Source: Candidatus Sericytochromatia bacterium
GTDB taxonomy: Bacteria > Cyanobacteriota > Sericytochromatia > S15B-MN24 > JAQBPE01
Assembly: GCA_040400605.1 (NCBI GenBank)
Contig: JBBAPZ010000017.1
Location: 2,903 to 66,902, forward strand
Reading direction: 5' to 3'
Length of the DNA: 64,000 bases
Of the stretch, positions 29,932-41,585 are shown piece after piece. The notes under the pieces were generated by a model. It saw only the letters and a program-made list of their open reading frames with translations. It searched no databases and had not been told where the DNA came from. Every line of letters starts with the position of its first letter. Position 1 is the first letter of the stretch. The position numbers and the translations under genes are program-made.

Positions 29932-31515
29932 TCAATGCGCTTGATGCGCCGCAAACTGTGGTGCAACCATTCGCAACACCATTCGAACAAAGTTAATGTT
30001 GGTAAACTCGTCACGTAAAAATGGTGCCACCTGAAAAAACAGTTTCAACAAGTCAAGCAAACCTTTATGGGAACTCAATGTGCCCAAGATACGCCAATGC
30101 GCATCCAGCGCCTCTTGCGATTGGTGCTTTTCCAATTCGAGCACCACCACGTAAAGGGTCACCAGCGTCGCATGCGCCGTGAGCAGGTCATAGTGAAACG
30201 ACAATTCTTTGGCAAAAAGCAGGTGATCCAACCATTGCGTCATCTGAGCATGGGCACGCAATTCACCGGGCATCGGCTTGCATCCATCCAAACACGCAAA
30301 TTCTGGCGACACATTCGAGAAGCCTTTAAAAAGGAACGACAGGTAAATTTCAGCCAACATTCGTTCCGCATCGGTCAAAGGGGTGAAATCATGCGCCTCA
30401 GACGGCTTCTTTAAAGGCTCGGCCAACACATCGGTCATCATCCACAAACGCTCATGGAGTGGCGAGGCATCATCGTTGAGTATGCGCCGCAACCGGCTCT
30501 CCATCTGCTTGAACTCATCCCATGTGACCGGATGATCCGGTGTCAACAGGAACTGTTCAGGCGGGGTCCACGGACGAGACAAAATCAAGCGTGTCCGAAT
30601 ATCCGCTGAGTGCGCAGCCAAAGGTAAACCAATTCCCTTACGCGCGCTATCACAAAAATGGCTGGTGGTAACCGCCACGCCATCCGGCGTTTCAACAAAT
30701 CGATACGGGTAAACGATACATGTATGGAAAACCGGTGTTCCCAAAAAAAGATGCAGGCGACAGCGATTTTGGGTATCGAGAAATCGACATGTTTCATCAG
30801 GTTTTTTAACGTATAAGGTATCGTCGTCACAGGGTTCCAATTGTAAACCCTCGAACTCGGGCGCAAACTCGGACCAAGGCAGTTGATCCAAAAGACGCTG
30901 CGTTGCCCGCTCGGTCGTCACCTCCCATTTCATTTTGCAACACGCACCCGAACCTTGACACGAAAAACGCGCATCTTCCTGAAACAACAAGGGCTGGTCA
31001 CCAGGCTGGTAACGTCGCCGATAAGCCAAATCGAGCCAATCACGATACGAATGCGCCGATGTCCGTAAAAATGGAATATCGCTTAACGCCATTGCACGCC
31101 CTTTGCCGAAACTCCACGCCTCGACACAAGCAGCCAACGTCAGCCAAACCAACTCGAGACGCGCTTCGACAACCCGAACCCCAAAAGCCAACCACAGAGG
31201 CTGATTCTGACCCTCCGTCAAAAAACGCGCCCACACAACGCCTTCCGACGCACCGTCGTCAAGACCACTCACCCACTCACACGTACCCTGAGCGGGAAAA
31301 GCCCACAATTCCTCCAAACAAGACACCACACGGTCATGATGCGCCCGCGCGAATTGAACCGGGTCTACCTCACGCTTGGTGACAACCTCATTACCCAGCA
31401 ATAAATCAGCATCCGATGCCCAAAAATCAAGGTATGCAAGGCCTTCTGAAGGCTGATTACGCAGCTCGAAAAACCGAACGAGCAATCGCTCGGCATCCAC
31501 CCTCGTCAACATCAC
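29932..31515 (-). CDS. YkgJ/FliB-family (CxxCxxCC zinc/iron-chelating domain) protein
   Basis: CQGSGACC followed by additional Cys (CRFLDTQNRCRLH), as in the flagellin lysine-N-methylase/YkgJ family. 527 aa. Confidence 0.5.
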   Translation of the reverse strand: MMLTRVDAERLLVRFFELRNQPSEGLAYLDFWASDADLLLGNEVVTKREVDPVQFARAHHDRVVSCLEELWAFPAQGTCEWVSGLDDGASEGVVWARFLTEGQNQPLWLAFGVRVVEARLELVWLTLAACVEAWSFGKGRAMALSDIPFLRTSAHSYRDWLDLAYRRRYQPGDQPLLFQEDARFSCQGSGACCKMKWEVTTERATQRLLDQLPWSEFAPEFEGLQLEPCDDDTLYVKKPDETCRFLDTQNRCRLHLFLGTPVFHTCIVYPYRFVETPDGVAVTTSHFCDSARKGIGLPLAAHSADIRTRLILSRPWTPPEQFLLTPDHPVTWDEFKQMESRLRRILNDDASPLHERLWMMTDVLAEPLKKPSEAHDFTPLTDAERMLAEIYLSFLFKGFSNVSPEFACLDGCKPMPGELRAHAQMTQWLDHLLFAKELSFHYDLLTAHATLVTLYVVVLELEKHQSQEALDAHWRILGTLSSHKGLLDLLKLFFQVAPFLRDEFTNINFVRMVLRMVAPQFAAHQAH

Positions 31516-31542
31516 GCCTCCCTTTTACCCTTACACCAAATC

Positions 31543-32292
31543 TCACGCCCTCGGCGAAGTGGTCACACCCTCGTCACTCGTTTTGGGTGGTTCTGTAAAA
31601 CCCTTGCACAATGCGTCGAAAACACTTTCGGCACCATCCAGCAATTTGAGCGCCGTATGCGCCCGATAAACCAAACCACTCAACTGCGGCACTTTCAATG
31701 CCTTCATGTTTGCCAGATACTCGACCCCCGTGGCAGGCACTTCCTGGGCCTCTTTTTGTGCCAAAAGCGCCTGAAGCGCCGTATCGAGATTGGCAAAATC
31801 CTGTCTGAAGCGCTCCCAAGCCAACAAACGTTCGGGATCATGCAAACACCGCTCACGCTCTGCCAACCACGCATCAGGTACACTCCTTGGCGGCGCCTTG
31901 CCGGCTTGGGCCGCTGGAATATCACGCCGCAACAAACCGTCAAGACGCGCCAACAACAGATAATCCATTTGAGCAGTGACCAACGCAATCTCCAACGTCC
32001 GTGCCTCAAAAGCCGGCGTCAAAGCTTGGGTAGGCACCTGAAAAACGGGTGAGTCAACCGCGTAACACTCAATCTGAGCCAAACCCAATTCAGCAAGGCG
32101 CAACTGTAGGACAAGAAATTCGCGTGCACGGCTCGCAGTGCGCGTCCCATGACGAGACAGTTTTTGACGACTGACCTTGAGCAACTCGCCAAGCTCTTTA
32201 CGCTTCTGAACCATTTTCAACTGCGTTTGGCGGTACTCCTTGCTGATACGCTCCCATTGCGCTTGATCCTCGGGCGTCAACTTTTTCGTCAT
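31543..32292 (-). CDS. hypothetical helical protein
   Basis: Start MTKKLTPEDQ sits 8 bp after the upstream stop and has an AGGA RBS. The track ORF (to 32424) overlaps the upstream gene. Confidence 0.45.
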   Translation of the reverse strand: MTKKLTPEDQAQWERISKEYRQTQLKMVQKRKELGELLKVSRQKLSRHGTRTASRAREFLVLQLRLAELGLAQIECYAVDSPVFQVPTQALTPAFEARTLEIALVTAQMDYLLLARLDGLLRRDIPAAQAGKAPPRSVPDAWLAERERCLHDPERLLAWERFRQDFANLDTALQALLAQKEAQEVPATGVEYLANMKALKVPQLSGLVYRAHTALKLLDGAESVFDALCKGFTEPPKTSDEGVTTSPRA

Positions 32293-32299
32293 GGCTCGC

Positions 32300-39847: not shown

Positions 39848-39858
39848 GACATCTCCGG

Positions 39859-40668
39859 CTACTTCACCACACCCAGCGCATCATCCACCGACTTGTTGAA
39901 GTTATCCAACATATCCTTGAACATCTTGTAATTCTGCAATGCGGTCACAACCTGGGTCTGTAAAATGGCACCCGCACCGATGCGATCCGGCATCTCAATC
40001 ACCCCGGCCTGAACAAACCCAACCTCCGCACGCCCATTGGCAAAAACACGCAAAGGCCCTGACGCATCCGTCACCTGATACACCGTATTGCCATAACCCG
40101 AAAAGCCCAACTGAGACCGCGAACTCACCTGACCCAGACTCAAATCAGGCAAGTTAACCCCACCGACCGCATTGCGCAAAACCGGCGTCGGCGGATCCGT
40201 CAATCGACCACCCCCCCCCACCACGAACAAACCTTGCGCATTCACCAAACGCCCCTGCGCATCAAAATTAAAATCGCCAGCACGGGTCAAAAACAAACGC
40301 GCCCCTGGTCTCAAATTCTCCGCCAAAACGAAAAATCCCTCACCCCGAACCGCAAAACTGGTTGAACTCTCAACCGGCTCCACCATCCCTTGCCGGAACG
40401 CGATGCCCTGAACGCCAAAGCGCAGGGTACCACCCCCACCGTCGGCCCGGGCATTGCGCCCCCCTGCCCCTTCCGTCGGCTTCTGGCCCGCATCGGCACC
40501 ACTGCCCCCCTGTGTGCCGAGCTGGCCAATCTCATTGTTGTAGCCAGGCTGCAAAAGCCCCTGCGCATTGCGCACGATGGATTCCTGCCACTGACTGATG
40601 GCTCTGAAGCCCGCGGTAATCTGATAATGAAAACTGCTGCCCATCCATCCCCCCGCTCGCGAAGACAA
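39859..40668 (-). CDS. divergent flagellar basal-body rod/hook-like protein (FlgF/FlgG-like)
   Basis: The N-terminus GFRAISQWQESIVRNAQGLLQPGYN fits the flg_bb_rod pattern G[LF]xAx7[IV]xxNxANxxTxGYK. Central RGEGFFVL...TRAGDFNFDAQGRLVNAQG matches the rod GFFxV...TRxGxFxxDxxGxLV pattern. The C-terminal QNYKMFKDMLDNFNKSV is weakly like the rod C-terminal helix. Alternative start at 40644. Confidence 0.45.
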   Translation of the reverse strand: MSSRAGGWMGSSFHYQITAGFRAISQWQESIVRNAQGLLQPGYNNEIGQLGTQGGSGADAGQKPTEGAGGRNARADGGGGTLRFGVQGIAFRQGMVEPVESSTSFAVRGEGFFVLAENLRPGARLFLTRAGDFNFDAQGRLVNAQGLFVVGGGGRLTDPPTPVLRNAVGGVNLPDLSLGQVSSRSQLGFSGYGNTVYQVTDASGPLRVFANGRAEVGFVQAGVIEMPDRIGAGAILQTQVVTALQNYKMFKDMLDNFNKSVDDALGVVK

Positions 40669-40721
40669 CCGAGGGCATTATACCCGCCAAGGTGCCCGCT
40701 GAACGTGATGGCATCCACTTT

Positions 40722-41585
40722 TTACGGAATGTACAGATCCTTGAATGCATCAAGGTTCAAGCGCTTGCCGGCAGAAGGCTCAGACACCGCCTTTTGCTTC
40801 GAATCACGCAAGCCATACGAGCCGAAACCCTGTAATCCCCGAATGGGAGATTCACCAGAAAGTGAGTCGAAGCGTTGCTTCAAAGGACCGATAACCGGTG
40901 CTTGCGATGGTGCCTTGTCAGACTTGGAATAAGGTCCAATACCTTTTAAACCCTTGGTTGGGTCATCATCAATGACCGATGCGATCGTTCCCATCTTCGA
41001 TTGCGCAGGACCACTGGCGATCGCCCGAACAATACCGCTCAGCGCGATCAGCATTGACCCAACGACAACCACACCAGACCCAATGAACAACAAATTGCTG
41101 GCGACCGAACGAATAATCGGCAAAATGAGCGACACCGCTTCCGATCCACCCCGCATCGCAATCAGCGCCGTACCACCAGCCATCGCCACAGTGCCCGTGA
41201 TCACGATGCCCTCCACGCTGCGCCGTGCCATCGTGGCAACCGCCTCGAACGCATCCTTGAACCCCAAACCCACACCCCGCAACGCCCGTTCCCAAAACCC
41301 GTTGGCCTCATCCTCATAATGCAAAAGCACCGCAGGCTGACCGTTAATCCGCAAATCGGGCACCACATTGCGCTTCTTGAACGAAAAATCCAATCGGTTC
41401 GCATAAATCAACAAGCGCTCAGACTCCCCACTGGGCGTCACCACACTCACCAACATCTCATCGAAACCGTTTTCTTTGGTTTTTTCAGCCGCCGCCGGCG
41501 CATCCGTCCCCGACTTCAATCGCGCCAAGCCCTGATAAGCCAGCGAACGACCATTGATGCTGACAGAATCATAGCCGCGTTGCAC
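40722..41585 (-). CDS. hypothetical membrane protein (2 predicted TM helices)
   Basis: Soluble N-terminal domain, then two hydrophobic segments (GIVITGTVAMAGGTALIAM; LLFIGSGVVVVGSMLIALSGIV). First gene of the minus-strand cluster; an AT-rich divergent promoter region lies upstream. Confidence 0.5.
   Translation of the reverse strand: MQRGYDSVSINGRSLAYQGLARLKSGTDAPAAAEKTKENGFDEMLVSVVTPSGESERLLIYANRLDFSFKKRNVVPDLRINGQPAVLLHYEDEANGFWERALRGVGLGFKDAFEAVATMARRSVEGIVITGTVAMAGGTALIAMRGGSEAVSLILPIIRSVASNLLFIGSGVVVVGSMLIALSGIVRAIASGPAQSKMGTIASVIDDDPTKGLKGIGPYSKSDKAPSQAPVIGPLKQRFDSLSGESPIRGLQGFGSYGLRDSKQKAVSEPSAGKRLNLDAFKDLYIP

Follow-up and report, generated by a model that had tools for sequence, protein, structure and literature searches.

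We analysed 64,000 nucleotides of a Candidatus Sericytochromatia genome (contig JBBAPZ010000017.1; this whole stretch is called the window below), in which eleven genes, g1 to g11, lie between positions 29932 and 41585. Genes g2 to g11 form a cluster whose order is conserved across Sericytochromatia contigs, and the first of them encodes a protein related by profile and predicted fold to flagellar rod and hook subunits. With a probability of about 45%, and so somewhat short of even odds, we read the cluster as a vertically inherited module confined to the Sericytochromatia, one that is akin to the flagellar basal body or descends from it. The window is chromosomal DNA, with genes for seryl-tRNA synthetase, succinyl-CoA ligase, GroEL and ParB. 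An initial annotation, made from the letters of the DNA, had placed eleven open reading frames (ORFs) here, all on the minus strand, and all are present as placed. The starts of seven were refined using ortholog alignments and Shine-Dalgarno-like sequences (g2 40644, g3 39844, g4 38106, g5 36582, g6 36271, g10 32292, g11 31512); the new g10 start abolishes an overlap between g9 and g10. In order of transcription, with lengths in amino acids (aa), the genes and the one large gap among them are:

g1, 40722-41585, minus strand: 287 aa membrane protein with about three hydrophobic segments; window-specific
g2, 39859-40644, minus strand: 261 aa, divergent FlgE/F/G-family axial (rod/hook-type) protein by profile and model
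g3, 38189-39844, minus strand: 551 aa predicted lipoprotein; PKD domain, Pro-rich linker, Ycf48-like seven-bladed beta-propeller
g4, 36718-38106, minus strand: 462 aa, disordered P/Q/A-rich N-terminus and HEAT-like domain
g5, 36328-36582, minus strand: 84 aa, central conserved LGP..IPN.F motif
g6, 34808-36271, minus strand: 487 aa, HEAT-like paralogue of g4 with an in-frame 39-nt repeat
g6/g7 gap, 34004-34807: 804 bp, AT-rich, containing one copy of a repeat, element B
g7, 33749-34003, minus strand: 84 aa, probably helical, orphan family
g8, 33385-33612, minus strand: 75 aa, orphan family with a conserved C-terminal ...ANDV..LILK....LQP
g9, 32300-33358, minus strand: 352 aa, helical bundle, disordered linker and helical C-terminal domain
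g10, 31543-32292, minus strand: 249 aa, probably helical
g11, 29932-31512, minus strand: 526 aa Cys-cluster protein, FliB/YkgJ superfamily relative

The evidence for a flagellar connection begins with g2. Its sequence matches the Pfam D1 domain of FlgE, FlgF and FlgG (PF22692) with 35.1 bits against a gathering cutoff of 27 (E 1.5e-8). About 50 homologs were found, all from Sericytochromatia-type sources, and PF22692 is annotated in all 50. In a profile built from 19 family members, positions 10-240 pair with 9-242 of Salmonella FlgG (E 1e-10); the profile also detects Campylobacter FlgE (E 1.5e-18). The AlphaFold model (pLDDT 76, above 90 across most of the beta domain) has an N-terminal helix at residues 2-29, a Gly-rich disordered insert at 46-72, a beta domain at 73-218 and a C-terminal helix at 224-260. 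When this model was compared with solved structures in Foldseek, FlgG chains ranked first, with FlgF and FlgE behind them (FlgG chain 7cbm_L, E 3e-12, TM-score 0.66; FlgG chains of rod cryo-electron microscopy structures, TM-scores 0.64-0.68 over 268-282 columns). Because the D1 match, the full-length FlgG profile alignment and the FlgG-ranked model fold all point the same way, g2 is, as judged from sequence and predicted structure, a genuine FlgE/F/G-family axial protein with a full-length fold. The initial annotation had noted rod-like motifs in its N-terminal and central parts and had named structural comparison as a check; the predicted axial fold extends over the whole length. Like the FlgG and FlgF rod proteins and short FlgE hooks, g2 falls in the class of about 260 aa, has a D0 coiled coil of terminal helices and a D1 beta domain, carries a flexible segment at the Dc/L-stretch position and has no signal peptide; unlike theirs, its gene sits amid orphan genes and not within flgBCDEFGHIJ. 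In the family alignment, conservation is highest at the termini, as would be expected if polymerisation and export were maintained.

The same protein is highly divergent. Identity to FlgG and FlgF chains in the Foldseek alignments is 14-19%, neither Flg_bb_rod (PF00460) nor Flg_bbr_C (PF06429) in Pfam matches at E <= 1, and the ANNxxN and SNV-type motifs are altered. Scores lie below all NCBIfam equivalog cutoffs (FlgG, 51.8 against 350 and 35.7 against 252.75; FlgF, 48.4 against 178.5; FlgE, 52.2 against 801), reaching 14-15% of those for FlgG. As a rule, FlgG ranks with the most strongly conserved flagellar proteins and FliD with the most weakly conserved ones. Since g2 has diverged so far and the window's own FliD shows conventional conservation, we infer that g2 is a specialised paralogue rather than the housekeeping FlgG of a distal rod.

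Automatic pipelines label g2 homologs FlgG or FlgE, and such names would suit an ordinary flgF/flgG rod operon with poorly annotated neighbours. No rod, hook or ring gene lies beside g2 among its neighbours in 12 loci; the cluster holds no FlgB/C, FliE, FlgH/I/J/A or other flagellar family, which together with the missed FlgG, FlgF and FlgE cutoffs effectively excludes an ordinary flgFG operon. Repeats resembling miniature inverted-repeat transposable elements (MITEs) flank the region and might suggest a mobile, prophage or defence island. These repeats, however, are dispersed intergenic elements found throughout the window, the GC content is native (54.7% in the cluster, 53.6% in the window) and synteny is class-wide. 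Searches with PADLOC and PHROGs returned coiled-coil noise only, and we rejected a defence island or prophage. Either kind of explanation, operon or island, now strikes us as hardly credible.

Directly after g2 in every locus comes g3, at a distance of at most 16 bp in most of them and 11 bp in the window. Pfam assigns it PSII_BNR (PF14870; 43.4 bits against a cutoff of 27), together with a PKD match that is weak for the single sequence. With the family profile, Ycf48 (8am5_S) is the best match among all solved structures (E 2e-20) and PKD is next (E 5e-6). All 10 orthologs checked have a lipobox signal peptide, and so does the copy of the window. The secreted protein with an Ig domain and a BNR/Ycf48-like propeller that had been described from the sequence is therefore better specified, by lipobox and profiles, as an exported lipoprotein with a PKD domain and a Ycf48-like propeller. 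Its score against the Ycf48 equivalog model is 46 bits, compared with a cutoff of 326, and in sequence terms g3 is a relative of the Ycf48 family, not an ortholog. It resembles Ycf48/HCF136, the photosystem II assembly lipoprotein, in combining a propeller with a lipoprotein anchor, and differs from it in having an extra PKD domain and a Pro-rich linker and in belonging to a non-photosynthetic host. The invariant adjacency of g2 and g3, with small gaps, and the lipobox always found in g3 count in favour of our basal-body reading.

With g2 homologs as anchors, we collected 15 related loci. Seven of these, L001, L004, L012, L013, L014, L025 and L030, keep the order g2, g3, (HEAT), small, HEAT, small, small, g9, g10, (g11), and L024, L026 and L027 show the same order to the limits of their contigs. 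L004 belongs to assembly GCA_036675505.1 and L030 to GCA_035285325.1. Orthologs of g2-g11 share 25-60% protein identity in about ten Sericytochromatia contigs, and for the small ORFs of more remote loci orthology is confirmed by hidden Markov model (HMM) searches (for g5, in 10 loci). This arrangement is conserved far beyond chance, and gene-order conservation in related genomes, which the initial annotation had listed as a check, is thus found in about ten contigs. Named close homologs of the cluster proteins all come from 'Candidatus Sericytochromatia bacterium', 'Cyanobacteria bacterium RYN_339' or similar metagenome-assembled genomes (MAGs), and the families are restricted to the Sericytochromatia lineage.

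The conserved cluster differs at both ends from the eleven genes first described. No g1 ortholog adjoins the cluster in any related locus, and g1 has no Pfam or NCBIfam match; it is window-specific and lies outside the cluster. Its place next to g2 is taken elsewhere by a gene for a FAD-dependent, geranylgeranyl-reductase-like oxidoreductase, so g1 does not stand as a member, and in place of the two transmembrane segments claimed for it a crude hydropathy scan gives three hydrophobic segments. Further upstream, on the opposite strand, most relatives have a conserved orphan gene for a protein of about 650 aa and a gene for a peptidoglycan amidase (Amidase_2) or a LysM protein (L013 465-3653, L024 555-2498, L026 62-3352, L027 218-3061, L030 1154-3115). 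Neither these genes nor the oxidoreductase gene is found in the 64-kb window. At the other end, the conserved neighbourhood extends past g11 to two further genes. The product of the GNAT-like gene is 27% identical to a 309-aa protein encoded beside the g11 ortholog in L030; this 309-aa protein matches Acetyltransf_1 above the cutoff (E 5e-5). The CarboxypepD_reg product is 29-33% identical to those of genes after the cluster in L013, L014 and L030. The features beyond g11 are:

Elements A and B, abutting, 29601-29876: MITE-like element A at 29601-29729, element B at 29728-29876
GNAT-like gene (DUF4081 and acetyltransferase), 28685-29527, plus strand: convergent with g11
CarboxypepD_reg-domain gene, 24698-25831, minus strand: 377 aa, Pfam match, recurrent downstream of the cluster

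A 613-aa ORF between these two genes (26246-28087, minus strand) has no Pfam family and no counterpart in the related loci, and may be an insertion specific to this genome.

Whether g2-g11 work as one unit is less clear than their conservation. In L003 and L005, g6 is followed by unrelated genes, for example one that is phosphomannomutase-like, instead of by g7-g11, so that g2-g6 and g7-g11 are separable modules and the single unit originally proposed behaves as two. The intergenic gaps from g1 to g11 measure 77, 11, 34, 135, 53, 804, 136, 26, 7 and 27 bp; the short ones thus span 7-136 bp and not 12-58 bp as first reported, and the large AT-rich gap, given before as 805 bp, is 804 bp long (43.8% GC). 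The AT-rich intergenic region upstream of g1 (41586-41843) was likewise confirmed, at 41.5% GC. A promoter and terminator scan, with counts not above those in shuffled sequence, was uninformative on operon structure. Known RNA elements were found neither in the 804-bp gap (Rfam) nor in the upstream intergenic region.

An explanation that we consider unlikely, while giving it real weight, is that two or more unrelated modules are involved: g2-g6 would form one unit, and g7-g11 with the GNAT-like gene a separate cytoplasmic, membrane-peripheral scaffold or modification unit, often adjacent by chance. The loci in which unrelated genes come after g6 fit it, as do the 804 bp between the halves in the window and an inverted pair of 149-nt element B copies (29728-29876 and 34394-34542, 72-73% matched) that brackets g7-g11 exactly. 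So does the behaviour of g11, which L013 lacks locally, L030 has in inverted orientation and both L004 and L012 carry twice, and so does the cytoplasmic appearance of g9 and g10 with their tails resembling membrane-targeting sequences. Yet g7-g10 come directly after g6 in seven independent loci, at 25-55% identity, and persistent adjacency usually means shared function. Elsewhere the gap is far shorter: L004, L012, L013, L014 and L025, the other five in which it was measured, have about 130-267 bp, and the 804 bp of the window therefore look like an insertion of element B and AT-rich DNA.

The flagellar context of the window is sparse. The one other flagellar gene among the scanned ORFs of at least 126 aa is fliD (14630-16072, minus strand), whose product scores 135 bits for FliD_C and 86 bits for FliD_N and is 28-33% identical to proteobacterial FliD. 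The gene is isolated, and neither fliS nor a flagellin gene accompanies it: on one side is a convergent PilT-like ATPase gene (13459-14544, plus strand), on the other an AAA/ParB/GNAT block. Two other contigs, L028 and L029, keep the synteny SerRS, PilT, FliD, AAA_22, ParB, GNAT, and L028 is from the same MAG as the cluster locus L004. That this isolated fliD is conserved, and present in the L004 MAG too, suggests that these organisms have a route for type III export. Together with an axial protein whose termini are intact and which has no signal peptide, the conserved FliD makes such a pathway the most economical assumption.

These observations can also be read as the trace of a loss, in which the flagellum disappeared and g2, perhaps with the isolated FliD, was recruited into a non-flagellar envelope structure built of lineage-specific proteins. 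The 14-19% identity of g2 to FlgG and FlgF and its 14-15% of the FlgG cutoffs, next to a conventional FliD in the same genome, would be explained in this way. All neighbours are orphan families, fliD stays beside its PilT-like ATPase gene with synteny kept in three genomes, and no other flagellar gene appeared in the approximately 350 kb of Sericytochromatia sequence examined. Against it, an axial subunit that keeps its D0 helices but has no signal peptide depends on a type III gate, and the cluster encodes none; a working flagellar export and assembly system is the simplest account of why FliD and the g2 termini are conserved; and the scarcity of flagellar genes rests on small parts of genomes, in pieces of about 20 kb. 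We regard such a relic as rather improbable.

The remaining members of the cluster are largely orphan families. Genes g4 and g6 had been described as HEAT-repeat paralogues. The paralogy holds, and the repeats look HEAT-like: the two families align in hhalign with a probability of 97% (E 6.6e-11), and the g6 family profile matches alphaRep proteins, which are designed HEAT-like repeats (E 8e-6). Pfam HEAT_2 scores for g4 and g6, 24.5 and 17.2 bits, fall below the cutoff of 27.7 (E 3.4e-5 for g4). Each protein has a disordered P/Q/A-rich N-terminus, a HEAT-like repeat domain and no signal peptide; g4 is absent in L014 and L030, which have one HEAT copy only. A W-rich C-terminal tail of g4 was considered as a conserved membrane anchor and rejected, as it occurs only in the window copy. 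The 13-aa repeat of g6, put at about nine copies before, is real and amounts to 8.3 copies of an in-frame 39-nt unit (35515-35839) coding for QVMQPGTFATQPT. In the ortholog alignment, with no tandem-repeat scan of the orthologs, the corresponding part is a non-periodic P/Q-rich linker in which the repeat is not apparent. It may be a recent expansion.

Alignments and HMM orthology place g5, g7 and g8 each in its own small conserved family. The initial annotation had suggested comparing these three proteins of about 80 aa with FlgB/C, FliE and SctI/SctF, and had seen a weak FliE-like C-terminus in g8. No such similarity emerged by sequence or profile. Searches of the three family profiles against all PDB sequences gave no FliE, SctF, SctI or FlgB/C match at E <= 10, and Pfam scans of 24 family members at the same threshold gave none either, returning coiled-coil noise only, as g7 did in Pfam, PDB, PADLOC and PHROGs. 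Probabilities in hhalign against FliE and needle references were below 1%, which is a lead only. With all three comparisons negative we rejected these identities on grounds of sequence; nothing points to an axial hairpin fold, and the FliE-like C-terminus of g8 has no support in any of them. What g7 and g8 have in common with FliE and SctF/SctI is only size (71-87 aa) and a probable helical character. The supposed N-terminal paralogy of g8 and g5 also fell away (hhalign probability 0.3%); between g7 and g5 there is a weak C-terminal signal (32%).

An exhaustive HMMER search found 34 relatives of g9 among 1.84e9 protein representatives, with the same architecture or as fragments, and the family members that carry source names are all hypothetical proteins. 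Its AlphaFold model, based on an alignment of 25 family members (pLDDT 79, pTM 0.68), shows a three-helix bundle (4-131), a Pro/Gly-rich disordered linker (132-228), a helical domain (229-330) and a short terminal helix. No specific fold match was obtained with this model, including any likeness to a FliK/SctP ruler, an FlgD cap or a FliJ stalk. The C-terminus of g9 is a conserved basic-hydrophobic tail, RLKSLFK, and g10 orthologs end in TDRLxxxFK, a tail that g10 of the window does not have; the g9/g10 tails were seen in L001, L004, L012, L013 and L014. By analogy with MinD- and FtsA-type membrane-targeting helices, we infer that they may act as peripheral membrane anchors. The g10 protein has no Pfam or PDB match. 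Its similarity to g9 (hhalign probability 45%, E 2e-4) is consistent with g10 being a distant paralogue of the g9 N-terminal domain.

For g11, described as a protein of the CxxCxxCC (YkgJ/flagellin-N-methylase) family, the picture is mixed. The NCBIfam FliB model (NF038110) is the only family matched by g11 and its orthologs; the match falls on the Cys-rich half at the N-terminus (positions 6-190 of the 373 in the model; g11, E 7e-8, 32.4 bits against a cutoff of 85). Three of four orthologs match as well, all below the cutoff, the E-values including that of g11 running from 1e-8 to 7e-8. Seven cysteines are invariant in the family (C186, C192, C193, C243, C252, C266 and C288). The closeness to FliB and the conserved cysteines thus stand, while the sub-cutoff score and a weak Pfam CxxCxxCC match (E 0.02) do not bear out membership proper. 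We found no solved structure related to g11. It shares with the flagellin lysine-N-methylase FliB the Cys-rich N-terminal half and conserved cysteines; it differs in being about 150 aa longer, in aligning over half the model and in having no flagellin gene beside it.

Taken together, the proposal of a flagellum-related or other filament- or secretion-like apparatus gains from the axial g2, the exported g3, the closeness of g11 to FliB and the gene order. It loses on the small proteins, on the g9 fold and on self-sufficiency: with no ATPase, export gate, secretin, channel or pore among its genes, the cluster is not a self-sufficient secretion or filament apparatus. Several further points weigh against a basal-body module. 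In about 12 loci the surroundings of the cluster, out to 10 kb, contain no canonical flagellar gene, and fliD, itself beside a PilT-like ATPase gene with no fliS or flagellin, also fits a relic. By the tests run, neither the small proteins nor g9 resemble axial subunits, chaperones or rulers. The two halves need not work together, as L003 and L005 illustrate, and g11 is far below the FliB cutoff and variable in position.

If the cluster is nevertheless a basal-body module, it could work as follows. The terminal D0 helices and D1 domain that FlgG uses to polymerise appear to be kept in g2, which would most likely be exported, with no signal peptide, by a flagellar-type type III gate encoded elsewhere, and would then stack into a short periplasmic axial segment. 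The g3 lipoprotein, Sec-exported and lipid-anchored, would be the likely periplasmic partner of this segment, as a ring, bushing or scaffold. Signal peptides and transmembrane segments are lacking in eight of the ten conserved products, which makes g4/g6, g5/g7/g8 and g9/g10 candidate cytoplasmic scaffold or chaperone-type components, the last pair possibly held at the membrane via their basic-hydrophobic C-terminal tails. Finally, g11 and the GNAT-like enzyme might modify a component of the structure, as FliB methylates flagellin.

Such an arrangement would have parallels. Lineage-specific periplasmic scaffolds decorate a conserved axial core in other bacteria, among them PflA/PflB/FlgP in Campylobacter, FlgT/FlgO/FlgP/MotX/MotY in Vibrio and the spirochaete collar proteins FlbB/FlcA. 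The cluster resembles these systems in setting a clade-restricted lipoprotein, g3, and helical-repeat proteins beside an axial subunit. It differs in that g4 and g6 have no signal peptides, whereas PflA and MotX are periplasmic, in that no relation in sequence or fold to PflA- or MotX-type scaffolds was found, and in that no motor or stator genes lie nearby. As a clade-specific addition to the basal body, the cluster would join a growing list of lineage-specific motor elaborations.

A more speculative idea, and in our estimate an improbable one, is that Sericytochromatia without a conventional flagellum use a repurposed g2 and g3 with clade-specific cytoplasmic scaffolds to build an envelope-associated structure as yet unseen. 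Were this so, a flagellar component would have been exapted in the closest non-photosynthetic relatives of cyanobacteria, and there would be a hint of a role for Ycf48-type propellers before photosystem II existed. An axial protein working outside a flagellum would be an unusual case, and the finding would carry more weight should the genomes prove to have no flagellar export apparatus. In either event, a Ycf48-family lipoprotein in a defined non-photosynthetic gene context bears on the origin of photosystem II assembly factors, and the small, clade-restricted orphan families g5, g7, g8, g9 and g10 raise interesting questions of origin in themselves. The Sericytochromatia are a little-studied, largely uncultured non-photosynthetic class whose cell biology is poorly known, and the cluster offers a concrete, conserved and testable handle on it. 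Our literature searches, aimed at flagella and motility in Sericytochromatia, yielded neither a statement on flagella in the class nor a description of this cluster. Single g2 homologs were already known through automatic annotation as FlgG or FlgE; what appears to lack an earlier description is the conservation of the cluster, its Ycf48-like partner and its orphan families.

The repeats of the window form a separate set of observations. Element A is a dispersed MITE-like intergenic repeat of about 129 nt, and the copy reported at the 3' end of the cluster (29603-29728) was recovered at 29601-29729. The copies are:

Element A, MITE-like: 6776-6854, 16377-16447, 28467-28588, 29601-29729, 42548-42676, 50971-51062 and 58746-58864

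Two in direct orientation, 29601-29729 and 42548-42676 (77% identity), frame the entire cluster together with a divergent gene (41844-42563), and another pair of copies flanks the GNAT-like gene. A 92-nt direct repeat (25920-26011 and 61491-61582, 78% identity), neither copy of which has an Rfam match, lies just upstream of the CarboxypepD_reg gene and upstream of a PilZ-domain gene (61644-62312, plus strand). Elsewhere in the window, a 462-aa protein (54622-56010, minus strand) combines DUF2949, DUF4388 and Peptidase_C39-like domains, and its gene adjoins that of a BNR_2 propeller protein (56018-57013).

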